From an uncultured archaeon (GTDB lineage Archaea; Thermoplasmatota; Thermoplasmata; Thermoplasmatales; Thermoplasmataceae), in contig CP009479.1 of NCBI GenBank assembly GCA_000965745.1, positions 380,457 through 444,456 of the forward strand: a stretch of DNA of 64,000 bases, given 5' to 3'. A program made the position numbers and the translations under genes. This document shows, one piece after another, positions 9,836 to 28,136 of the stretch. The notes under the pieces were generated by a model. That model did not search any database. It had not been told where the DNA came from and saw nothing but the letters and a program-made list of their open reading frames with translations. Positions within the stretch are counted from its first letter, which is position 1. Every line of letters starts with the position of its first letter.

Positions 9836-9907
9836 GGGCCGGTAGATCAGCGGTAGATCGCTTGCTTCGCAAGCAAGAGGTCTCGGGTTCAAATCCCGAC
9901 CGGTCCA
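9836..9907 (+). tRNA. tRNA-Ala (anticodon CGC), no encoded CCA
   Basis: Hand-folded cloverleaf: acceptor GGGCCGG/CCGGTCC with the G3:U70 alanine identity pair, D arm gatc-agcggta-gatc, anticodon stem cttgc/gcaag with loop ttCGCaa, T arm tcggg-ttcaaat-cccga, discriminator A. Confidence 0.9.
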
Positions 9908-9909
9908 TT
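9889..9909 (+). repeat. attL core: tRNA-Ala 3' end, 21-nt exact direct repeat of 27406..27426
   Basis: tcaaatcccgaccggtccatt is identical at both positions. Confidence 0.85.
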
Positions 9910-17589: not shown

Positions 17590-17849
17590 TTCTCAGTGAA
17601 AGAGAGAGAGTCGCCGAACGCGTGAGCGCTCTTATTATATAATATATACCTGATACAATGAACATTACATATTAAAAAAATGGAATTTTCCTTAATTTTT
17701 AAAGCTTGAAACGAACAAAGAACAATCCACTTGTTTTCTGACACTCTCTCTCCAAAATCAATAACGACTGTTCTGCGACACTCAATGATTCGACTCGTTC
17801 GTTACTTTTAATAATCTTACCAGTGAAGCATGATTGTGCAGGTGATCCA
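17590..17849. other. Candidate element replication origin
   Basis: AT-rich core (17632-17700) flanked by inverted copies of a GTTC(T)GCGAC(A)CTCTC-like motif (17602-17619 inverted; 17736-17752 and 17770-17783 direct). Lies immediately 5' of orc1/cdc6. Confidence 0.5.
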
Positions 17850-18935: not shown

Positions 18936-18949
18936 TAACGTTCAATAAC

Positions 18950-21043
18950 ATGGTGTTTTATATGGTTGATTCTTTGATGGAAAAAGGTGACCAAACTCAA
19001 AGAGGTGGCAATGGGCAAAGGAGATCATTAATCGAGGAGTTGCCAAGAATAGTCGACAGAGGAAAGAAGGAGGCACAGAAAATTCTTGATGGGCTTTCTA
19101 AGTCCCAGAGAGTAACTCTTCAGACAAACGAATTGGTGCTGCCTACAAAGGCCATCGGAGGGCTGACCAAGTTTACGGGGCAGACTGTAAGGACGGAAGA
19201 TAACAGTGAATTTCTTAATCGACTCATATACGGTGATAATCTGTTTGCCATGCAGGCACTTTTAGCAGGCGATCCTGAAACAGGACTTCCGTCAATGAGA
19301 GGCAGGATCGACCTGATTTATATTGATCCGCCCTTTGACAGCAAGGCGGATTATAGGACAAAAATACATCTTCCTTCCGTAGACATTGAGCAAAAACCAT
19401 CGGTAATAGAACAATTCGCATACTCTGATACTTGGAAAGACGGGACAAAGTCTTATCTGGAGATGATCGCCCCCAGATTGGTTCTAATGAAAGAACTACT
19501 GAGTGAAAAGGGTTCAATCTACGTGCATATAGATTGGCATGTTGGACATTATGTAAAAGTAATAATGGACGATATCTTCCAAAAGGAAAATTTCATAAAT
19601 GAGGTTGTTTGGAAAAGAACAAGTGCTCATAGCGATTCTGGTAGATATGGAATCAATAGTGACTACATATTATTCTATACAAAAACTTCTGAAAGGATCT
19701 GGAATCAGCAATACGAACCATATTCAGAAGAATACCTTGCGAGGTTCAGAAATGTTGACCCTGATGGGCGTAAATGGCAGGACGGACCGATAACGGCTAA
19801 AGGATTACAGGGAGGTGGTTATTCCTATGAATATAAAGGGGCCTATGGCTACTGGAGGTGTCCTAAATCAACCATGGAAAGACTTGACAAGGAGAACCGG
19901 TTGTATTTCACCAAGAATGGTGGGATTAGGATAAAGAGGTATCTGGACGAAACTCCGGGAATACCTATGCAGACCATTTGGACGGACGTTTTTGCTGTCA
20001 ATTCTCAAGCTCATGAAAGGGTAGATTATGTTACCCAAAAGCCGGAATCATTGCTGGACAGAATAGTAAAAACATCATCTGATGAGGGTTCTATTATCGC
20101 AGATTTCTTTGCAGGTTCTGGAACATTAGGAGCAGTGGCAGAGAAACTTCGAAGAAAATGGATTATGTGCGATTTAGGTAGACCTGCAAGTATGATCTCT
20201 CGAAAACGTCTTATCGACCAGGATTCCGGACCATTCCTCTACCAAACTATTGGAGACTACCAGAAAGAACAGTTTGAAAGATCGCAATTCAGACGTATAG
20301 GAGACCTTGCCCATGTTGTGATCAACCTATACGGTGCGCTTCCATTTCCGATGCAAGAAGGTACCCCCACTAATCTTGGCTACATCAAACAGAGTAAGAC
20401 TTTGGTGTTTGTTGACTCTCCCACAAAAATCACTGGTTATGCTACTCTTAAAAGGGCCCAAGAGCTCAGAGCCTCCTTCATGGGAGGATGGAGCAGAATA
20501 GTTGTTCTGGGTTGGAACTTCGAAACGGATATTGGTAAAATCATAGACGGCATAAACGATGATAAGCTCGAAGTACTGGTGATTCCCCCAGACTTGTTGG
20601 AGAAGTTAAAACACAAGGCTGACTACGAGAAACTCATAAAAGAAGGGAGCGTAAGATTCAGTTCTTTACAATACCTTGCTGTCAGACCAGTTATCAAAAA
20701 ATTAGCAGATGACGACACGGAGGAGTTGACAATTGAACTTGAGAATTATGTTCTTCTTTCCCCAGATGCATTACCACTTGACAAGGCAGACAAGGACAAA
20801 CTCGAAAAGATCATAGAAGAGGATCCTTTGAGTCTCGTTGAATACTGGAGCATTGACCCAGAATATGATGGAGAGATGTTCAGGAGCAAATGGCAGGATT
20901 ACCGGGAAAACCATGAAGAGTCCGCTAAGGTGGACCGAAAGGTAAAACTCCTTGTCCCCAAGATTAATGGAAAAAGAAAGGTCTGCGTGAAAGCAGTTGA
21001 TGTATTCGGATTCGAGAGCGTGACCGTTAAAGAGGTATTTTGA
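18950..21043 (+). CDS. mod: Type III R-M DNA methyltransferase (Mod), beta-class N6A/N4C MTase
   Basis: Motif IV LIYIDPPFDS precedes motif I FFAGSGTLGAVA. Overlaps the res start by 4 nt. Confidence 0.85.
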   Translation: MVFYMVDSLMEKGDQTQRGGNGQRRSLIEELPRIVDRGKKEAQKILDGLSKSQRVTLQTNELVLPTKAIGGLTKFTGQTVRTEDNSEFLNRLIYGDNLFAMQALLAGDPETGLPSMRGRIDLIYIDPPFDSKADYRTKIHLPSVDIEQKPSVIEQFAYSDTWKDGTKSYLEMIAPRLVLMKELLSEKGSIYVHIDWHVGHYVKVIMDDIFQKENFINEVVWKRTSAHSDSGRYGINSDYILFYTKTSERIWNQQYEPYSEEYLARFRNVDPDGRKWQDGPITAKGLQGGGYSYEYKGAYGYWRCPKSTMERLDKENRLYFTKNGGIRIKRYLDETPGIPMQTIWTDVFAVNSQAHERVDYVTQKPESLLDRIVKTSSDEGSIIADFFAGSGTLGAVAEKLRRKWIMCDLGRPASMISRKRLIDQDSGPFLYQTIGDYQKEQFERSQFRRIGDLAHVVINLYGALPFPMQEGTPTNLGYIKQSKTLVFVDSPTKITGYATLKRAQELRASFMGGWSRIVVLGWNFETDIGKIIDGINDDKLEVLVIPPDLLEKLKHKADYEKLIKEGSVRFSSLQYLAVRPVIKKLADDDTEELTIELENYVLLSPDALPLDKADKDKLEKIIEEDPLSLVEYWSIDPEYDGEMFRSKWQDYRENHEESAKVDRKVKLLVPKINGKRKVCVKAVDVFGFESVTVKEVF

Positions 21044-23967
21044 TGGTAAATGTCAAGTCTCCCGGAACAAGAGATGTACCGCTAAAGCTTGCGAAGAGGA
21101 TTACCGAACAAGCAAACGAGTTGTGGAAATCTGGAGAATTTCTTGAGAAAGTCGCGCCAATAACTCAGGAACTGCTTAAGTTCTGGGACCCTGATGGAAT
21201 ATTTGCTGATGAAAGAAGCATAAACTTTCATGATGGGCAGTGGCAATCGATACTGAATGTAATCTATGTGCACGAGGTCCTGAAACTATCCAGCGTTGGT
21301 GAGCTGTATGCTCAAATTTACTCAGAACTGCTGGCGCAAATGAACATGGCAGATCTCAAACAGGATAAATACGAACATCCAAAATATTGTGTAAAGATGG
21401 CAACAGGAACCGGTAAGACTTGGGTTATGGATGCTTTACTCATATGGCAATACCTTAACTCAAAATACGATGAAAATGGAAGTGAGAGGTTCTCAAAGAA
21501 CTTCTTGTTAGTGGCTCCTGGTATCATAGTCTATGAAAGACTCCTGGACGCTTATCTGGGAAAGCGAAGAGAGGACGGTAATAGGGACTTTGATCAGTCC
21601 GATTTCTGGAGATTTCAGAAACTCTTCATTCCACCTGTCCACAAGGATGCAGTCTTTGGCTTTATCCAGAGTTGTGTTTCTCAAAAAGAGGAAATAGGAC
21701 GAAAAGTCACCGGAGAAGGGCTAATAGGAATCACAAACTGGCATCTTTTGGCAGAGGATGAGGAAGAAGATGAACTGGAGTCTGCACTAGATAGGCCAGA
21801 TATAGCAGTAAATGAACTGCTCCCCATTACTCCTGGTACTTCCCAGGGCCATTCCTTGGAGGAACTTGACAATCAGTATATGAGAGGCCGGGAACTCGAC
21901 TACTTATCAAGTCTTCAGGACCTTGTCGTATTCAATGACGAAGCTCACCATCTTGGCGAGATGAAGAGGGCGGATCAGGTTGTGGAGAAGAAATGGCAGG
22001 AAGCACTGGACAAAATTGCAGAGATCAAGAAGGATCGTTTCATGCAAGTGGATTTTTCAGCAACACCGTACATTGTCACTGGTAGTGGACAAAGCAGAGT
22101 CCAGAATCATTTCCCACACATAGTGTCCAACTTCGAACTCGTGGATGCAATAAAAGAAGGACTGGTCAAAACTGTCGCTATTGACAAGAGGAAGGAGTTC
22201 GGTTCAATTCCTCTTGAGGACCTTGAGTACAAAGCAGAGCGAGAGGGCAAACAGGTTGCGAGTCTCTCCGATGGGCAAAAACTCATGCTAAGAGCAGGTA
22301 TGCAGAAATTGAACATACTTGAGGAAGAATTTACAAAACTGGACTCGACAAAGTATCCTAAAATGCTAGTCGTCTGTGAAGATACCAAAGTGGGCCCTCT
22401 GGTTATCACATTCCTTCTGCAGGAAGGCTACTCAGAGGACGATGTAATGGAAATCCACTCCACAAGGAAAGGCGATGTGAGCGAGGCAGAGTGGAAAGTG
22501 ATTGAACAAAGACTCTTCGACATAGACCGTCATAAGAAGCCAAAGGTGATTGTTTCCGTTCTAATGCTCAGGGAAGGATTTGATGTTAACAATATATGTG
22601 TTATAGTGCCACTTAGGTCCGCCTCTTCTTACGTTCTATTGGAGCAGTTAATAGGGAGAGGTCTCAGATTAATGTGGCGTGGACCAGACTACGATGATAT
22701 AAGAGCAGAAAATCGTGAGAAACTTCTAGTAAAGAAGGAAGAGCCAGATAGCTATATTGACATTCTAAGTGTAGTAGAGCACCCTAACTTCATCGAATAT
22801 TATGAAAGAGTCCTTGCCGGAATGGTGGGCAAGGTCAGTGAAGAACCAACAAAGAATAGAGTCGTTGGCGACCTTATCAAGGTAGGTCTCAAACCTAACT
22901 ACAGAGACTATGACTTGTTCTGGATCATCATATTGCAGGACAAAGAGGAAGAACTCGCGGTGCCTGACCTATCCATAAATAAACTTGAGCCATTCCAGAT
23001 GAGACTTGAGGATTTGCGTTCACTGGTCGGGCGAAAAGGTGATACGTTTTACAGCGAGGAATTGACAGTAAAGACAACTTTTGGCGAATATACTGTTACA
23101 GCAGACATTTTCACTGCAAAAAGCTACAATTCATTTATCCAGAAAGTGGTGAACGCAGTGTCAGTTATCCATGTCAATGCAAGAGGCAGGAAATCAAGGG
23201 ATTTTCCAGTCATGCAGGTTAATTCTGCCCTTATTGCAAAGCTCACGGATGAATACATCAGACACAAACTATTCGGGCAGGAGTTTGATCCATTAGTGGA
23301 TAATAACTGGCGCGTACTTCTTGTGGCACAGCAGAACTTGATCAAGCACATTGTAAGTAACATTGCACAGGCTGTTTATGATTCCATGAAGAATCTCAAA
23401 GTAAACGAGGCCAAGATCGTGAAAAAGTACTTCTCCGAGGTGCCTGAAATTCGAATAAGGGAAACATATGCCTTGAGAGCTGCAAAGAACATTTACGAGA
23501 AGATAGCCTATCCTTCACATGCTGGTGGGTTTGAAAAGGACTTTATCGAATTCATAGATTCTGATTCCAAAGTCAAGGCATTTGTGAAGATAAACGAATA
23601 CTACAACGACTTTGCAAATATCATTTATGTCAGGGACGACGGTCTTCTTGCTCACTACTACCCGGACTTCATGATAAGGGCTTGTGATCACATCTATCTT
23701 GTAGAAACCAAATCTGAAAGAGACATGAGCAACCAGAATGTCAAAAACAAGAGGATCGCAGCCATTGACTGGGTGGATAAAATAAATGAGCTCCCTCCAG
23801 AGGAAAGAATGAATTGTGATTGGAGCTACGTGCTCCTTAGCCAGAACACTTTCGAAATGATGAAAAAGCAGGGCGCGAATACCTGTGAGATACTGGAATA
23901 CACCAAACTCACCAAGGCAAAGGTGAGAGGTACACTAGGAGACTACATGGGATTCAAGGACTATTGA
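21040..23967 (+). CDS. res: Type III restriction enzyme Res subunit (SF2 helicase + PD-(D/E)xK nuclease)
   Basis: MATGTGKTW (motif I), FNDEAHHLG (DEAH), LREGFDV..., C-terminal YYPDF...YLVETKSE nuclease motif. 975 aa. Confidence 0.85.
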   Translation: MMVNVKSPGTRDVPLKLAKRITEQANELWKSGEFLEKVAPITQELLKFWDPDGIFADERSINFHDGQWQSILNVIYVHEVLKLSSVGELYAQIYSELLAQMNMADLKQDKYEHPKYCVKMATGTGKTWVMDALLIWQYLNSKYDENGSERFSKNFLLVAPGIIVYERLLDAYLGKRREDGNRDFDQSDFWRFQKLFIPPVHKDAVFGFIQSCVSQKEEIGRKVTGEGLIGITNWHLLAEDEEEDELESALDRPDIAVNELLPITPGTSQGHSLEELDNQYMRGRELDYLSSLQDLVVFNDEAHHLGEMKRADQVVEKKWQEALDKIAEIKKDRFMQVDFSATPYIVTGSGQSRVQNHFPHIVSNFELVDAIKEGLVKTVAIDKRKEFGSIPLEDLEYKAEREGKQVASLSDGQKLMLRAGMQKLNILEEEFTKLDSTKYPKMLVVCEDTKVGPLVITFLLQEGYSEDDVMEIHSTRKGDVSEAEWKVIEQRLFDIDRHKKPKVIVSVLMLREGFDVNNICVIVPLRSASSYVLLEQLIGRGLRLMWRGPDYDDIRAENREKLLVKKEEPDSYIDILSVVEHPNFIEYYERVLAGMVGKVSEEPTKNRVVGDLIKVGLKPNYRDYDLFWIIILQDKEEELAVPDLSINKLEPFQMRLEDLRSLVGRKGDTFYSEELTVKTTFGEYTVTADIFTAKSYNSFIQKVVNAVSVIHVNARGRKSRDFPVMQVNSALIAKLTDEYIRHKLFGQEFDPLVDNNWRVLLVAQQNLIKHIVSNIAQAVYDSMKNLKVNEAKIVKKYFSEVPEIRIRETYALRAAKNIYEKIAYPSHAGGFEKDFIEFIDSDSKVKAFVKINEYYNDFANIIYVRDDGLLAHYYPDFMIRACDHIYLVETKSERDMSNQNVKNKRIAAIDWVDKINELPPEERMNCDWSYVLLSQNTFEMMKKQGANTCEILEYTKLTKAKVRGTLGDYMGFKDY

Positions 23968-23992
23968 CTCTTCTTACACTGACAACTTGTAC

Positions 23993-24157
23993 CTAAGCAG
24001 TACTCTTTGGAATGGTGTAGGAATTCTTCTCACCCACATAGGTATTGAAATTATTACCACACTCTGAGCATTTGTATCTTGAAACCTCATATACATTAAA
24101 CGCCCATTGTTTGAGAGGAGGATTCTTATTTTCCATGTTACAGACAGGGCACTTCAT
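23993..24157 (-). CDS. Zinc-ribbon protein, 54 aa, absent from the ORF track
   Basis: Hand translation: MKCPVCNMENKNPPLKQWAFNVYEVSRYKCSECGNNFNTYVGEKNSYTIPKSTA. Contains CPVC...CSEC. Lies downstream of the Phd-like gene on the same strand. Confidence 0.4.
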   Translation of the reverse strand: MKCPVCNMENKNPPLKQWAFNVYEVSRYKCSECGNNFNTYVGEKNSYTIPKSTA

Positions 24158-24183
24158 AACGAAATAGTAGAACTAACGCCGAC

Positions 24184-24366
24184 TTAAATTTGTTCCTGTA
24201 AAAACTCCCTTGCACTTCTGACCCCTTTCTTTATATCATCTTCACTTTTTCTTAATTGCTCCATCACACAATGGCTTTGAAGAGTTTCAATGGTAGCAAG
24301 AAGGCTATCCAGGTAGGATTTTGGTATGCTTATCAACCTGTCGTTGTGTTTTGCCATCAAGAACAA
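24184..24366 (-). CDS. Phd/YefM-like antitoxin fragment-like small protein
   Basis: C-terminal pattern LLATIETLQSHCVMEQLRKSEDDIKKG..SAREFL resembles the ETLEIL...DIKxG tail of Phd/YefM-type antitoxins. No RelE/YoeB-like partner was seen. Confidence 0.4.
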   Translation of the reverse strand: MFLMAKHNDRLISIPKSYLDSLLATIETLQSHCVMEQLRKSEDDIKKGVRSAREFLQEQI

Positions 24367-24393
24367 TAATACATATTCAGCTTTTAGTATCTA

Positions 24394-24870
24394 TTGGTAA
24401 GACTCCGGCTCAAATTCACCCCTAACCCCTCTTTGAGCCTCCGCCGATTACTATGTGCCCTTCGCTCGCCTGCACGCCGAGCACAGGACCCCATGCTTCG
24501 ACTCCAATCAAAATTCACCCCTAGCCCCTCTTTTGATTTACGTCTCGCACTCTTCTTCGAAGAGCCCCTCATTCGCCTTGCTCATTCAGGGTGGTGTCCT
24601 GTGCTCGCCGCTCGTGGTGTATGTGTGGTGTTAAACACCTTCGCTTCGCTTGGTGTTCCACACCACCCACCGCTAACGCTTACACCACTCGGTCTTGCTA
24701 CGCAAGACTTCCGGCTCGCTTCGGGCACATTATTCTCTCCTGCGGAGTGCAATTTTAGGGGAACAGGGGGAGGGGAATTTTTGACCGCACAATCTCGCTG
24801 CGCTCGGTGCGGGATAATATTAGGGGTTCTCGGTCCGTGCTCACTTCAACGATTCACAGATGGATAATAC
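24394..24870. other. GC-rich, repeat- and stem-rich non-coding island (candidate structured RNA or repeat element)
   Basis: Local G+C is clearly above the flanks. Two 36-nt direct repeats (24401, 24500), a G-rich partial complement (24756-24780), 12-bp perfect long-range complementarity (24478-24489 / 24596-24607) and several hairpins. The ORFs here translate to low-complexity strings. Confidence 0.45.
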
Positions 24871-24941
24871 AAAGCACTGCGACCAACCCTTTTGGGAAAA
24901 GGTAGACGAAAACAAAAATTATTAGAAAATAATGTAATAAC

Positions 24942-24990
24942 CACGTGACGAGGTTTGTATAACAAACCTGACAAACAGGTTTTATACAAG
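24942..24990. promoter_or_regulatory. Overlapping palindromes upstream of the DGQHR gene (operator candidate)
   Basis: CACGTG (24942-24947). AGGTTTGtataaCAAACCT (24951-24969). AAACCTGacaaaCAGGTTT (24964-24983). RBS-like aggtaggtga at 25004-25013. Confidence 0.35.
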
Positions 24991-25016
24991 AAACCAATTA
25001 AGAGGTAGGTGAAACA

Positions 25017-26129
25017 ATGAGACTTAGAGCACTTGAAATTAGTCAGAAGGATACCCAGTTCTACCTCTGCTCATTTAGAGCAAAAGATATCGTTGGTATC
25101 TATAAGGTAGATACATGGAGAACGGATAACAGGAATGGCTACCAGAGAGATGTTGTAATCAGTAGGGCAAGAGGGTTTGGAAGATTCATAAGAGATGGCG
25201 GTGTCTCGCCTTCTTCCATACTGCTAAATGTGAGAGAAAGTGGAGTTATATCTTACAAAGATGGTTATTTACAGATCCCAGACGAGACTCCATTATGGAT
25301 CGTAGATGGTCAGCACCGTGTCAAAGGGCTCAAAGAAATGATTGAAAATGATGGTCACATTGACATGGGAGAATTTGAATTCCCCGCAGTAATAATGAAT
25401 TACCAGAATCCTTATGAGGAGGCTAAGCAATTCGTCATCATTAACAGAACCGCAAAGGGTGTACGGTCTGATTTAGGTGAAAGATTCCTTCAAAGGGCTA
25501 TTGAAGAACAAGGTAAAATGAGTGTCATGGCCAGACAAGGGCTCCCTTCATCGATTCTTACCGGAGTAGAATGGAAAACAAGGGCTGTCAATATAACCGA
25601 CAGGATTAGCACCCTGGATACTTCTATATGGAAAGACCTGATTATATTTCCGAACGAGCCTAAAGGCGATAAACTGGTCAGTCAAAAAGCATTTTCAGAC
25701 TCACTGAGGCCAATTCTTAATGACCGACTATTTGAGAGACGTACAGACGATGAAATAACCCAGATTCTCATAAACTACTGGAATGCAGTCAAGGAAATTT
25801 GGCCCAGATGCTTCAGCGATCCAAGCTCTTACGTTCTTCAGAAGTACGCAGGGGTTTTTGCCGTTCACAAGTTGCTTCCAAAGGCAGCTCAGTTCTGCCC
25901 TACTAAAGGCGATAAAATTGTTCTTACTAAAGATTCTTTCCTGGTAATTTTTGAAAGACTTTCTCAGAAGGACTTGGGGGACGGCAAGAAGTTTGACGAG
26001 GAAATTTGGGCAAACAGAGGCAGATATGGAATGCTTGGTACAACAATGAAGTCCGTTTCCCTAATTACAGACGACCTGTCAGATGCGCTTGACAATTCTT
26101 TAGGATCGGGACAGGATATAGAACTGTAA
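25017..26129 (+). CDS. DGQHR-domain protein (DndB-like, ParB/Srx-fold)
   Basis: Literal WIVDGQHRVKGL motif and downstream QFVIINRTAKGV (FxxxN) motif, as in the DndB/DGQHR family. Confidence 0.8.
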   Translation: MRLRALEISQKDTQFYLCSFRAKDIVGIYKVDTWRTDNRNGYQRDVVISRARGFGRFIRDGGVSPSSILLNVRESGVISYKDGYLQIPDETPLWIVDGQHRVKGLKEMIENDGHIDMGEFEFPAVIMNYQNPYEEAKQFVIINRTAKGVRSDLGERFLQRAIEEQGKMSVMARQGLPSSILTGVEWKTRAVNITDRISTLDTSIWKDLIIFPNEPKGDKLVSQKAFSDSLRPILNDRLFERRTDDEITQILINYWNAVKEIWPRCFSDPSSYVLQKYAGVFAVHKLLPKAAQFCPTKGDKIVLTKDSFLVIFERLSQKDLGDGKKFDEEIWANRGRYGMLGTTMKSVSLITDDLSDALDNSLGSGQDIEL

Positions 26130-26146
26130 TTACCCCCTATTTCTAT

Positions 26147-27376
26147 TTGGAGGAATGTATGTCTTGTGATTTTATTTCTGAATTTCAAGTAACTGGCGAC
26201 AAAGTAGTAAATCCAAGAGAAGGAATAACTTATGAATTCAAGGAGAATTTTAACTGGGGAGGCAAAGAGAAATATGCCAAGATCATGGCTTCTTTTGCTA
26301 ATTCCACAGGTGGTTACCTCCTATTTGGCGTAAAAGATGACGGGCATATCGAGGGTCTCTCTAACAACAACTTTGAAGACCGCGACCCGGCAAATATCAG
26401 TTCATTCTTGAATTCCTTGTTCACTCCTGCAATACGGTGGGGCAAGTTCGTATGTGAACTTGGAGGATACAAGATCGGAGTCATCAAAGTCGAAGAGGCA
26501 ATAGAAAAACCAATTATATCATATAGGAACGGCCAAGAGGTGAAGGAAGGAGACATTTTCTTTAGGTATGCAGCTCAAAGTGAAAGAATTAAGTTTTCTG
26601 AACTGAAGTCGATCATTGAAATTGGAAGAAGGGTGTACGGAGAGAAGCTCCTCAAGAGTCTAAGAATGATTGTCGAGAAAGGTCCTGAATCTGTAAAACT
26701 GCTTGACCTGAACGAGTTGAAAGATGCAAAGAAAGATGAGATTTACTTCCTAGATGATAACTTTCCCGATTCGGAAGTAAGGGTACACAGAGCCTCAGAA
26801 AGCGAACAAACAAAGGGAGTTGGCATAAAAATAGTCAATGTTGAAGGTAAGGCGATGCCAATTACAATTAGGGAATTTGCAAACATAAGTTCAGAACTTA
26901 TTGTGCACGCCTTTCTTGATCAAGAGCTCCCTGCAAAATTTGATCCAATGGGCTTTGTGGAACGTCTCGCTTTCGAAACTAGCGGTTTGGTGCCTATGTA
27001 TTTTTATATAAAAGAGGCCAACTTAACAAGAGATGAGGCAGTTGAGCTTATTAAAAAAACAAAGTCTACCACTAGAGGAAGAACTACTATCCTAAAACGA
27101 TTGAGTGGTAAGGAATACGACTTCAGATCTTCAACATACAGCAACACACTTGATGACTTAATTAATGGTTCCTTGAGCATAAGTGATCTGCAAACCTCAA
27201 ATGTCAGGACCGTCTTGCAATCTATACGGTCTTGTTCAAAAGGCTTCTTGGTGCAGAACTGGAATAGGCTGAAGGACATAATGCAATACCTATATGATGA
27301 GTATTATATGAACCCGAAATTCAGGTCTGAGGTTAGATGGGCAATGTGTTTCATAGACTTGACCTTATTTTCATAG
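26147..27376 (+). CDS. AlbA_2 / Schlafen-like DNA-binding domain protein with uncharacterised C-terminal half
   Basis: N-terminal EGITYEFKENF...YAKIMASFANSTGGYLLFGVKDDGHIEGL matches the AlbA_2 (divergent-AAA/Schlafen) consensus pattern. Confidence 0.75.
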   Translation: MEECMSCDFISEFQVTGDKVVNPREGITYEFKENFNWGGKEKYAKIMASFANSTGGYLLFGVKDDGHIEGLSNNNFEDRDPANISSFLNSLFTPAIRWGKFVCELGGYKIGVIKVEEAIEKPIISYRNGQEVKEGDIFFRYAAQSERIKFSELKSIIEIGRRVYGEKLLKSLRMIVEKGPESVKLLDLNELKDAKKDEIYFLDDNFPDSEVRVHRASESEQTKGVGIKIVNVEGKAMPITIREFANISSELIVHAFLDQELPAKFDPMGFVERLAFETSGLVPMYFYIKEANLTRDEAVELIKKTKSTTRGRTTILKRLSGKEYDFRSSTYSNTLDDLINGSLSISDLQTSNVRTVLQSIRSCSKGFLVQNWNRLKDIMQYLYDEYYMNPKFRSEVRWAMCFIDLTLFS

Positions 27377-27405: not shown

Positions 27406-27426
27406 TCAAATCCCGACCGGTCCATT
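27406..27426 (+). repeat. attR1: exact 21-nt copy of the tRNA-Ala 3' end
   Basis: Identical to 9889..9909. Confidence 0.85.
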
Positions 27427-27432
27427 CGAACC

Positions 27433-27825
27433 CTACCTGAACAGCTTGAGACCCTTGTCAGTAAAAACTTCAAAGTGATTATATAAGGTATAGAGTGAGC
27501 ATCCGTTATTAATTGCTATTGACGCAACAATAGCGTCCATTCTTGGAACTGCCCCTCCTTTTCTTTCCGCGTCTAATTCTAAAACGGCAGATAGTTCACT
27601 GTCATTTTTACTGTATTCCAGAGTTGGAATCTGCAGGACTAGACGAGAATCTCTGGAGTATTTCTCTATACCGTACAGCACCTCATGCATGTTCACTGAA
27701 CTTGTGCAGTATTCTTCCCCGCTTTCGATGATTTTAAGCATGAGTTCCTGGCCTTTGTATGAGTCCTTATCCAGCACTTCGATGATGATATCCGTGTCCA
27801 GAAGAATCAATTTCTTTTCTCCCAT
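27433..27825 (-). CDS. vapC: PIN-domain toxin VapC
   Basis: LILLDTDIIIE (first acidic residue), HEVLYG, and MDAIVASIA, typical of PIN domains. Overlaps the vapB stop. Confidence 0.85.
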   Translation of the reverse strand: MGEKKLILLDTDIIIEVLDKDSYKGQELMLKIIESGEEYCTSSVNMHEVLYGIEKYSRDSRLVLQIPTLEYSKNDSELSAVLELDAERKGGAVPRMDAIVASIAINNGCSLYTLYNHFEVFTDKGLKLFR

Positions 27826-28019
27826 CGTTTCTTTTCTATATCCATGAGGAGCTCCTTCTTATTTTCAAATTCCACGCTTCCCCGTAGAGACAAAAGTAGA
27901 TCCTTCTTGCTCTGTGATTTAATAAGCCTGTCCAGAAGTTCACTGAAACTTTCATTCTCCTTCTTGAATCCCATCAGTTCATCATATACAGATTTCTTAA
28001 TGGTGATAGTTTTAGGCAT
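27807..28019 (-). CDS. vapB: VapB-type antitoxin (archaeal COG1753-like)
   Basis: MPKTITIKKSVYDELMGFKKENESFSELLDRLI matches the common archaeal VapB pattern. Lies upstream of vapC and overlaps it. Confidence 0.75.
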   Translation of the reverse strand: MPKTITIKKSVYDELMGFKKENESFSELLDRLIKSQSKKDLLLSLRGSVEFENKKELLMDIEKKRWEKRN

Positions 28020-28116: not shown

Positions 28117-28136
28117 TCAAATCCCGACCAGTCCAC
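28117..28136 (+). repeat. attR2: 18/20 copy of the tRNA-Ala 3' end
   Basis: tcaaatcccgaccAgtccaC compared with the tRNA sequence. Confidence 0.7.

Follow-up and report, generated by a model that had tools for sequence, protein, structure and literature searches.

The DNA analysed here (the window) is a 64,000-nucleotide (nt) stretch of contig CP009479.1, positions 380,457 to 444,456 of the forward strand, from an uncultured archaeon of the family Thermoplasmataceae (assembly GCA_000965745.1); all coordinates below are window positions. It carries a tRNA-Ala(CGC) gene at 9836-9909, and because the last 21 nt of this gene (9889-9909) are repeated exactly at 27406-27426, an integrated element can be taken to span approximately 9.9-27.4 kb. 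The subject of this report lies within that element, at 24401-24912. It is a GC-rich, non-coding module of about 510 bases, which we tentatively read as a signal that acts as single-stranded DNA (ssDNA) on Orc1-encoding, plasmid-like elements of the Thermoplasmata.

The element encodes a XerA-like tyrosine recombinase (scoring far below the family cut-off), ParA, a serine resolvase and Orc1/Cdc6 (TIGR02928, E 3e-30), as well as a VirB4/CedD-like ATPase recognized by a weak match (E 6e-8, 30.8 bits against a curated cut-off of 590). The 3' end of the tRNA gene occurs once more at 28117-28135 (18 of 19 bases), and the interval between the second and third att copies is occupied by a vapBC pair (27433-28019), which resembles a small insertion of its own at this site. 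In one relative, L144 (related loci are cited by L numbers), 1.2 kb separates the module from the att/integrase end, an arrangement consistent with a circular form.

The gene order in at least 12 loci is orc1, a variable restriction-modification (RM) cassette of 1.9-5.6 kb, sometimes two small minus-strand open reading frames (ORFs), the module and then variable cargo. Homology in the orc1 gene ends at its stop codon. Wherever the module and orc1 are both seen, their relative orientation is constant, and the module is usually present as a single copy. Its left neighbour is co-oriented in 29 of 31 loci, and its right neighbours are oriented 20 on the plus and 19 on the minus strand. The variable slot in the window, from the orc1 stop codon to the left end of the module (18936-24400), holds a type III RM system, and the equivalent slot of twelve relatives holds other methylase/endonuclease sets. 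The slot is a hotspot for defence genes, fixed at both borders.

Two small minus-strand ORFs lie to the left of the module, within 23993-24366; one encodes 57 amino acids (aa; ATG at 24357, no family) and the other 54 aa (a zinc ribbon resembling the IS1/IS1595 N-terminal domain, E 4e-4). They are kept beside the leftmost hairpin of the module, HP1, in about 11 loci and are absent in others; the interval between HP1 and the 57-aa ORF contains a TATA-like box (TATTAAAAT in relatives). A preliminary description of this DNA, made from the sequence alone, had called the gene to the left 'Phd-like', a label without family support in Pfam or NCBIfam. On the right (25017-27376) are a DndB/DGQHR gene (PF14072, TIGR03187), which by eye appears to have its own TATA-like box and Shine-Dalgarno-like sequence, and an AlbA_2 gene (PF04326, Schlafen-type). 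No dnd or dpd modification genes adjoin the DGQHR/DndB-like gene; the two genes may form a defence pair. At least part of this cargo is also found in L150 and L127.

A conserved, non-coding module

The preliminary description had estimated about 57% G+C over 24401-24520 between AT-rich flanks, and measurement agrees. G+C is 0.567 over 24400-24519 and 0.555 over 24401-24800, the highest of all 400-nt bins in the window, with flanks at 0.36-0.40 and a neighbourhood of about 42%. Coding had been considered unlikely, and this is borne out. Two ORFs cover the island, of 157 aa on the plus strand and 62 aa on the minus strand, and the former is called as a gene in metagenome annotations. It has no family in Pfam or NCBIfam, and no exact match to its product is on record in the contig index. 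Indels of about 9-10, 16 and 25 nt separate the homologues of the island, whose ORFs vary in length and frame, so that neither ORF is conserved; the indels among all copies include lengths that are not multiples of three. The segment 24401-24912 is non-coding.

The bounds first given for the unit, 24394-24870, enclose a real conserved unit, but its right end lies further out, near 24912. A search for other genomic and metagenomic copies, as had been recommended, recovered about 40 homologues from Thermoplasmata contigs, 68-96% identical and with differing flanks. (Taxon labels here and below come from the titles of metagenome-assembled genome (MAG) records, some of which are possibly mis-binned, and sequence counts are not counts of independent events.) The whole unit is present in 17 Thermoplasmata MAG loci and in most of the 32 metagenome loci that a core pattern retrieved. 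Its left end, RGCTTCGGCTC, is sharply defined against at least 14 different left flanks. On the right, the full-length form ends in ...GGTAGRCGAAAA (given also as ...GGTAGGCGAAAA), with conservation stopping after GGCGAAAA in at least 10 loci that have different right flanks; a shorter form stops after an AT box, near 24822. In the alignment this AT box (ATAATATTA, 24814-24822, not assigned to a strand) is kept beside the R hairpin described below even where the right flank differs, at a spacing that is not the same in the two versions. The optional right-hand module (24827-24912, minus strand), found in about half of the copies, consists of an imperfect hairpin, the palindrome CCCTTTTGGGAAAAGG and the end GGTAGACGAAAA.

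The nucleotide sequence of the module is more strongly conserved than the coding genes beside it, with identities of 85% versus 76% in L046, 95% versus 87% in L111, 83-86% versus 77% in L028, 85-88% versus 77-80% in L024 and 81% versus 75% in L148. Because the module exceeds its coding flanks in identity, its nucleotide sequence is taken to be under purifying selection.

The build of the module is itself modular, with optional hairpins, a 25-nt extension and the optional right-hand part, and partial copies exist. A short direct repeat, GGTAGGC, flanks many copies. Three homologues are deletion hybrids of the hairpins HP1 and HP2, in which the 5' half of HP1 is joined to the 3' half of HP2 (L136:9230-9300, L127:1040-1090 and L121:2200-2260). 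About 100 nt have been lost, including the 5' arms of helices P1 and P2, and the remaining module is 81-86% identical to that of the window. Either the hybrids reflect recent slippage or recombination between the loop repeats, or the deleted part is dispensable. Two contigs of one public run (L003 and L155, Logan ERR476942) stop inside the module, at window positions 24703 and 24588; this assembly break in the P3 region is probably due to palindromic repeats or to presence and absence of the 25-nt extension.

The optional parts, the hybrids and the flanking repeats could be those of a selfish or decaying mosaic, built from hairpin modules in the way of miniature inverted-repeat transposable elements (MITEs) or bacterial interspersed mosaic elements (BIMEs) and without a plasmid function. 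Repetitive extragenic palindromes (REPs), BIMEs and MITEs are likewise hairpin mosaics with optional parts and recombinant or deleted variants. Unlike them, however, the module is usually present once per element and nowhere else in the window, at a constant backbone position and in a constant orientation wherever orc1 is also seen, and it lacks terminal inverted repeats, target duplications and a linked RAYT or transposase. No conserved target is seen at the left junction. (This assessment, like those of promoters and terminators and of the attC-like sites below, was made by eye.) The conservation above neighbouring coding genes also argues against a mosaic of this kind, as does the lack of matches to the module in PLSDB, INPHARED and, with patterns from the Thermoplasmata copies, IMG/VR. 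We regard a selfish origin as improbable, and the decayed MITE for which the preliminary description had allowed finds no support in the borders, copy number or position of the module. An element of the IS200/IS605 type (PATE) was rejected; the left junctions have no common target tetranucleotide.

The module matches no described RNA or DNA element. When Rfam 15 was applied to the window at gathering and permissive thresholds, only the tRNA-Ala at 9836-9907 passed, and a tRNA/tmRNA scan of the window likewise found that gene alone. The best sub-threshold Rfam match within 24100-25100 scored 20.9 bits against a gathering score of 70, and 18 related loci plus one of the class-b units described below matched no relevant family (riboswitches, group II introns, HEARO, ROOL and GOLLD included). 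Tandem Repeats Finder reported no array at 24300-25000 with a score of at least 30. Searches by BLAST against PLSDB plasmids and INPHARED phages gave no match to the module, nor did IMG/VR scans with two patterns from its Thermoplasmata copies (class a); an IMG/VR scan with a loop pattern matched one contig (L152). As for the literature, a loop 15-mer and its 15-mer complement occur in no searchable paper, and the 11-mer loop cores occur in 39 papers, of which those listed concern unrelated topics (e.g. G-quadruplexes, i-motifs and nanotechnology).

Predicted fold and the strand that folds

The island is a discrete functional unit that is highly structured and has competing pairings. Its RNA-fold z-scores are -6.2 (plus strand) and -5.4 (minus strand), with none of 100 dinucleotide shuffles as stable on either strand. 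With DNA parameters, the fold energy is -92.6 kcal/mol (z -8.4) on the minus strand versus -77.0 kcal/mol (z -4.9) on the plus strand, and again none of 100 shuffles is as stable. The set of helices is alike on either strand and in all four folds. P1 closes a junction that holds P2, P3 and P4, with P2 carrying HP2, H5 and H6; HP1, H7, a G/C-rich tract and the R hairpin lie outside the junction. For reasons given below, all of these features are assigned to the minus strand.

The repeats at 24401-24434 and 24500-24533 (34-36 nt, 82% identical, 99 nt from start to start) had been described as 36-nt direct repeats; they are present, but they are hairpins with a shared loop rather than plain direct repeats, each presenting the 17-nt loop TTCACCCCTARCCCCTC. 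Their 23-mer core occurs only at these two sites in the window, and had no match in 100 shuffles. HP1 (24407-24439) has the stem GGCTCAAA/TTTGAGCC and the 17-nt loop TTCACCCCTAACCCCTC (minus-strand reading GAGGGGTTAGGGGTGAA), and HP2 (24506-24538) has the stem AATCAAAA/TTTTGATT and the loop TTCACCCCTAGCCCCTC, a TAG variant. Both stems are supported by covariation, in the case of HP1 among 79 distinct sequences. Relatives can have an extra hairpin in HP1 in place of loop TAA, and an inserted hairpin in HP2 with the minus-strand caps GAAA (7 copies), GUAA (5), GUUA (2), GGAA (1) and GUGA (1).

The 5' arm of P1, ATGTGCCC (24453-24460), pairs with the 3' arm GGGCACAT (24723-24730) in all four folds, and 97% of its cells are paired among 32 sequences. 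P2 pairs 24476-24489 with 24596-24609 in both fold and alignment; the perfect 12-bp complement recognized earlier, 24478-24489 with 24596-24607, extends here to 19 nt at 89% (24475-24493 with 24592-24610), and its near-copy at 24832-24842 is also present. In the most divergent copy, L026, the alignment shows the arms of P2 replaced by another complementary pair, GAAG..GG / CC..CTTC. H5 (24550-24564) is CTCTTC-TTC-GAAGAG; its minus-strand triloop is GAA, and in L063 one pair shows a compensatory change from C-G to T-A. H6 (24565-24591) is a hairpin with two tandem G.A/A.G blocks, a U.G pair and a hypervariable loop; its outer and middle Watson-Crick pairs are 81-98% paired, and on the plus strand its mismatched positions read C.U and A.C.

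P3 (24614-24688), seen in fold and alignment, is a long hairpin; its outer helix is GTGGTGTA/TACACCAC, its inner helix has 9 bp, and about two-thirds of the copies add a 25-nt extension with the minus-strand loop AAGCGAAGCGAA. At 24672-24679 lies GCGTTAGC, a GCGNNAGC mini-hairpin motif found in 28 of 31 copies. P4 (24692-24708), GTCTTGC-TAC-GCAAGAC, reads GC-GNA-GC on the minus strand and is 99.5% paired, with the loops GUA (16), GAA (10) and GCA (4). The hairpins listed in the preliminary description are thus all found (24626-24639, 24651-24664 and 24692-24708). H7 (24737-24747) is CTCC-TGC-GGAG, with a minus-strand GCA triloop, and two of its pairs are changed on both sides in 10 sequences (CTCC/GGAG to CCCT/AGGG). 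The tract at 24756-24781, G-rich on the plus and C-rich on the minus strand, corresponds to the G-rich segment noted earlier at 24756-24780 and is complementary to the loops of both HP1 and HP2. Minimum-free-energy folds pair it with the HP1 region in place of HP1, in agreement with the competing pairings that had been proposed; there are 2 to 3 such G/C-rich tracts per copy. The R hairpin (24785-24812), with alignment support for its pairing CCGCAC/GTGCGG, encloses a mini-hairpin at 24797-24803 (GCGNAGC on the minus strand), the middle loop base of which is each of the four bases in 4 copies while the flanking bases are fixed.

Covariation had been suggested as a check, and the outcome is divided: the stem of the shared hairpin covaries (see below), but the core helices are too invariant for their fold to be proven in this way. 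In the 32-sequence alignment, 93.9% of the cells are paired, compared with at most 48.5% for slid partners, and 31 cells are double-sided versus 10.1 +/- 2.3 in shuffles; most of these come from H7, and most helices never vary. The covariation score of the core fold is 0.056 versus 0.042. The fold is compatible with these data, and it is independently supported by the gain or loss of entire hairpins at precisely the loop positions (inserts in HP1 and HP2, 25-nt extension of P3), by compensatory change within the inserts (GACC/GGCC to GACT/AGCC) and by the swap of P2 arms in L026. RNAalifold gave messy results on both strands and did not discriminate between them, because repeated GTGGTGT/ACACCAC and CGAGC/GCTCG motifs allow many competing pairings.

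The preliminary description had read the plus strand as the one that folds, whereas the signatures of loops and mismatches indicate the minus strand. On that strand, those variable terminal loops that were examined have the form G-N-A or G-N-N-A, in which only the middle bases are free. Each copy has 2-7 occurrences of the heptamer or octamer GCGN(N)AGC on the minus strand and 0-1 on the plus strand; the module of the window has 4 versus 0, with 0.41 expected, and is the densest 515-nt stretch of the 64 kb. Isolated mismatches in the stem of the shared hairpin, counted in both families, are A.C (13) and G.T (3) as read on the plus strand, and the excess of A.C therefore amounts to G.T wobbles on the minus strand. 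In H6 and the inserted hairpins, G.U and tandem G.A pairs are found on the minus strand only, with A.C and C.U on the plus strand. The core helices show no strand bias in their G.T and A.C counts. Because of the GNA/GNRA loops, the asymmetry of GCGN(N)AGC, the G.U and tandem G.A pairs and the DNA-fold z-score, we conclude that the functional strand is probably the purine-rich minus strand, which runs antisense to the operon upstream and corresponds to the 'bottom strand' of integrons.

The strand signatures bear directly on the possibility of a plus-strand RNA, which would be the 3' untranslated region, terminator or insulator of the upstream operon, or else a leader or switch for the downstream genes, type III antitoxins included. 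The module directly follows co-oriented genes in 29 of 31 loci, its C-rich plus-strand loops resemble an anti-Shine-Dalgarno sequence and can pair with the G-rich tract, and runs of four to five T residues occur at 24531-24534 and 24778-24782. On the plus strand, however, the loops read UNC/UNNC and the stems contain A.C, C.U and U.C mismatches. The control of downstream genes that had been proposed is not supported, in that the right-hand neighbours vary in both identity and direction, and the riboswitch or switching-RNA reading is left unsupported, without an Rfam match. The type III antitoxins ToxI, CptI and TenpI, also suggested previously, resemble the module in having repeat units of about 36 nt in a defence neighbourhood. 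In the module, by contrast, two non-tandem hairpin copies lie 99 nt apart, no ToxN/AbiQ/CptN-type gene is adjacent, and the opposite strand is apparently functional; with no tandem array and no ToxN-like toxin gene, the antitoxin idea fails on its defining features. A plus-strand RNA of any kind is hardly probable.

A hairpin shared across domains

The loop of HP1 and HP2 extends well beyond the Thermoplasmata. A scan of one genome per species with AAATTCACCCCTARCCCCTC yielded 116 loci, about 95 of which belong (by titles) to Patescibacteria/candidate phyla radiation (CPR), Nanoarchaeota, Woesearchaeota, Omnitrophota, Cloacimonadota, Gammaproteobacteria, Methanosarcinales, ANME-1, Altarchaeum and a Promethearchaeota MAG. 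These roughly 95 non-Thermoplasmata loci have the hairpin alone in common with the window. Consistently, an nhmmer profile of a class-b unit (see below) compared with class-a copies found homology confined to the loop region, about 25 nt (up to about 25-40 nt of hairpin). At least 10 stems without relation to one another present the shared loop, among them TTTTGAAAAATGAAA/TTTCATTTTTCAAAA, GGCGCGCAAAA/TTTTGCGCGCC and TTGGGCTTCGGG/CCCGAAGCCCAA. Among 79 distinct sequences of the hairpin, 10 of the 11 stem pairs change on both sides; there are 184 double-sided cells versus 59.6 +/- 8.2 in shuffles (none of 500 reached 184), and the covariation score is 0.48 compared with at most 0.20 for slid partners. 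Invariance of the loop within the 116 loci holds by construction, because the loop was the search key; it is well conserved also in copies found with a different key, the core pattern. The 20-mer was also met without a flanking stem, at L012:1506-1525 and L070:1823-1842 (two Oscillatoria contigs with a common GC-rich sequence) and in L042 and L093. These occurrences look unrelated to both families, and may be chance matches or coding sequence.

Many of the distant copies belong to a second kind of unit, class b, which is non-coding, about 300 nt long and present in more than 90 genomes (L004-L119) of CPR, DPANN, Asgard, Methanosarcinales, Cloacimonadota, Omnitrophota and others (e.g. L065:2330-2625, L015:2690-2960 and 3820, and L022). 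The order is a gene stop codon, the 17-nt-loop hairpin, an A-rich stretch, GC-rich mini-hairpins and finally an attC-like hairpin, GCGTATAAC-AAGGGATATACG...CGTATATCCCT-AAC-GTTATACGC, with conservation ending (by eye) after AACGTTA. The 17-nt-loop hairpin lies approximately 160-190 nt upstream of the attC-like hairpins in CPR, DPANN and other contigs, and some loci have further attC-like units 0.9-3.8 kb away, flanking single genes. Class b has the look of a cassette system that spans domains and has an additional conserved hairpin at its sites. The bacterial copies of the shared hairpin lie antisense between co-oriented genes, and no promoter was recognized there. A resemblance of class-b units to domain V of group II introns was unsupported by Rfam.

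The link to attC-like sites raises the question of whether the Thermoplasmata module is itself a single-strand-folding recombination site, an analogue of attC or attI that delimits and exchanges defence cassettes. It lies at the boundary of the variable slot, where orc1 homology stops at a stop codon and the homology of the element starts at one and the same nucleotide beside at least 14 left flanks. In 11 loci, the stop codon of a co-oriented RM gene (at least 5 different genes) lies 8-36 nt before HP1, the geometry of a cassette ORF and its attC site. L125 and L099 each have two direct copies that bracket the RM cassette, and the element encodes a tyrosine recombinase. The module is like the attC sites of integrons, archaeal ones included (PMC9668308), in that the bottom strand folds, directly 3' of a co-oriented gene at a cassette boundary, and in being common across domains.

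These parallels have to be set against several features that a recombination site would not lead one to expect. By eye, there are no R''/R' boxes (RYYYAAC...GTTRRRY) at the ends of the element in the window or in the 32-sequence alignment, and no R''/L''/L'/R' architecture; the module is about four times longer than attC, and 500 nt of conserved structure would be unnecessary for such a site. One of each pair of copies in L125 and L099 is truncated, at internal, non-equivalent points, and the right boundaries are heterogeneous, which fits homologous or illegitimate recombination better than a precise crossover. One and the same element adjoins different cassettes, although in a cassette system every cassette should bring a site of its own. 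Common hotspots flanked by conserved backbone genes also develop sharp borders, and the tRNA-Ala att repeats account for the recombinase. We therefore consider it unlikely that the module is a recombination site.

A signal on single-stranded DNA or an RNA

The reading that we favour, though only tentatively, is that the module is a signal acting as ssDNA, most likely in the priming of DNA synthesis. The island would be a cis-acting backbone element of tRNA-integrating, Orc1-encoding, plasmid-like elements of the Thermoplasmata, and it would act when the purine-rich minus strand is present as ssDNA. That strand could then fold into a compact and stable cluster of at least four GCGNAGC/GCGNNAGC mini-hairpins, other GNA-capped stems, the two hairpins with G-rich loops and the junction closed by P1. 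Such a cluster would resist coating by single-strand-binding protein (SSB) and mark a strand-specific site for a DNA transaction, most likely complementary-strand priming after a single-stranded stage such as transfer, in the manner of single-strand initiation (ssi) signals or single-strand origins (sso). The sequences themselves establish that the module is non-coding, better conserved than its neighbouring genes, fixed in orientation, able to fold and asymmetric between its strands; we infer the choice of DNA over RNA as the folded molecule, the single-stranded stage of the element and priming as the transaction.

The preference for DNA comes from the mini-hairpins. GCGNAGC and GCGNNAGC are known as 'mini-hairpin DNA', extraordinarily stable as DNA and far less so as RNA, to which SSB binds poorly, and such motifs occur at ssDNA priming sites, namely the G4, St-1 and alpha3 origins and RSF1010 ssiA (PMC13037366). 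The octamer GCGTTAGC of P3 is itself reported at the complementary-strand origins of phages St-1 and alpha3 (PMC13037366). Since motifs of this stability as DNA, weaker as RNA and located at priming sites recur in the module, DNA is favoured over RNA. GNA triloops dominate the set of loops. In the alignment, no conserved promoter was found at a fixed distance on either side, and likewise no terminator. The context also fits a cis-acting plasmid signal, with a single copy in fixed orientation to orc1, a co-oriented left neighbour, and VirB4/CedD-like ATPase, ParA and Orc1 genes on the same element. By analogy, some support may be drawn from the shared hairpin beside attC-like sites in other phyla, which has a like geometry (after a co-oriented gene, with the bottom strand folding); attC sites act as folded ssDNA, and archaeal integrons exist (PMC9668308).

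Other plasmid functions were considered and either rejected or set aside. A duplex replication origin (with origin recognition boxes or a duplex unwinding element) does not suit the island, which has a high G+C content and lies 5.5 kb from orc1; the sequence immediately upstream of that gene is AT-rich. This AT-rich intergenic stretch, at 17590-17822 (e.g. ttattatataatatatacc...attaaaaaaatgg), is the likely duplex origin of the integrated element. A resolvase res site and a centromere were set aside on position alone.

Several considerations weigh against an ssDNA signal. A single-stranded stage has to be assumed for this plasmid family, whose Orc1 implies theta-type replication. No relaxase or rolling-circle Rep was seen among the ORFs scanned, and the match to the conjugation ATPase is far below its curated cut-off (E 6e-8). 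Rightward replication from a start upstream of orc1 would make the plus strand, not the minus strand, the template for lagging-strand synthesis. With its approximately 400-510 nt and its multi-helix junction, the module exceeds in size and complexity the ssi/sso signals known to us. The core helices hardly vary, and covariation therefore leaves the fold unproven. RNA accommodates GNRA tetraloops, tandem G.A pairs and G.U pairs just as well, and structured RNA genes of AT-rich archaeal genomes classically stand out as GC-rich islands.

This brings up the main alternative, a structured non-coding RNA of approximately 400-500 nt transcribed from the minus strand, convergent with the orc1-RM operon and directed towards the small ORFs at 24366-24184 and 24157-23993, with a role in plasmid maintenance or regulation. 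It might be, for example, an antisense or insulating transcript that faces the installed RM cassette, or a protein-binding scaffold. The evidence for the strand is identical for such an RNA and for an ssDNA signal. An RNA would also suit the GNRA tetraloops on the HP2 inserts (14 of 16 copies), the tandem sheared G.A and conserved G.U pairs, the multi-helix junction with its long invariant unpaired stretches, the modular insertion of hairpins at loops seen in many RNA families, the RNA-fold z-scores of -5.4 to -6.2 and the GC-rich island in a neighbourhood of about 42% G+C, and the AT box at 24814-24822 could be its TATA element. However, most of the terminal loops are GNA triloops in exact GCGNAGC heptamers, which are strong in DNA and much weaker in RNA. 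The AT box is at a variable distance from the core, and transcription starting about 25 nt downstream of the box would begin within the R hairpin; HP1 is not followed on the minus strand by a terminator-like T run; no Rfam family matches either strand; and the homologous hairpin of bacteria is antisense between co-oriented genes, without a recognized promoter. Large RNAs such as ColE1 RNA II, GOLLD, ROOL and the HEARO/omega RNAs are like the module in size, number of hairpins, mobile-element location and conservation above their flanks; the module differs in lacking an Rfam match and an identified promoter or terminator, and in the dominance of GNA triloops in DNA mini-hairpin heptamers. An RNA of this kind is a doubtful but serious candidate, nearly as likely as the ssDNA signal that we prefer.

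Among described systems, the ssDNA signal would find its nearest counterparts in the ssi/sso class (the G4, St-1 and alpha3 origins, RSF1010 ssiA/ssiB, ssoA/ssoU and Frpo of the F plasmid). These too are non-coding, strand-specific and orientation-dependent clusters of stable hairpins on mobile replicons, they contain mini-hairpins of the GCGNAGC/GCGNNAGC type, and the St-1 and alpha3 origins carry the identical GCGTTAGC. They are also exchangeable modules with sharp borders. Known ssi/sso signals are bacterial, about 60-330 nt long and located on replicons with a proven single-stranded stage. The module, unlike them, is archaeal, resides on an Orc1-encoding element, measures 400-510 nt, includes a closed multi-helix junction and two hairpins with G-rich loops, and has no sequence homology to them. 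By analogy, it would work most like ssi/sso or attC, yet it is a member of neither family.

A broader possibility, doubtful but to be taken seriously, is that the island and the class-b units together represent an undescribed class of elements that act as single strands on both sides of the bacterial-archaeal divide. Their common grammar would consist of arbitrary stems, the invariant G-rich loop GAGGGGTTAGGGGTGAA and GCGNAGC mini-hairpins, and in Thermoplasmata plasmids it would have grown into a junction module of about 500 nt that anchors the RM swap-slot. The shared loop would then be a recognition element for a cross-domain factor or structure, such as an inter-loop G-quadruplex (from the loops GGGGTTAGGGG x 2) or a contact for a recombinase or primase.

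If the module is an ssDNA signal, it would be, to our knowledge, the first such candidate on an archaeal integrative plasmid of the Orc1 type, and it would imply a single-stranded stage, either transfer or an alternative replication mode, in elements that have barely been studied. If it is an RNA, it would represent a new class of large structured RNA specific to archaeal mobile elements. Either way, the module is the fixed right border of an RM exchange slot and thereby a landmark for defence cargo in the Thermoplasmata, and the 17-nt loop that it has in common with attC-linked units of more than 90 bacterial and archaeal genomes provides a testable handle on the movement of non-coding modules between domains.

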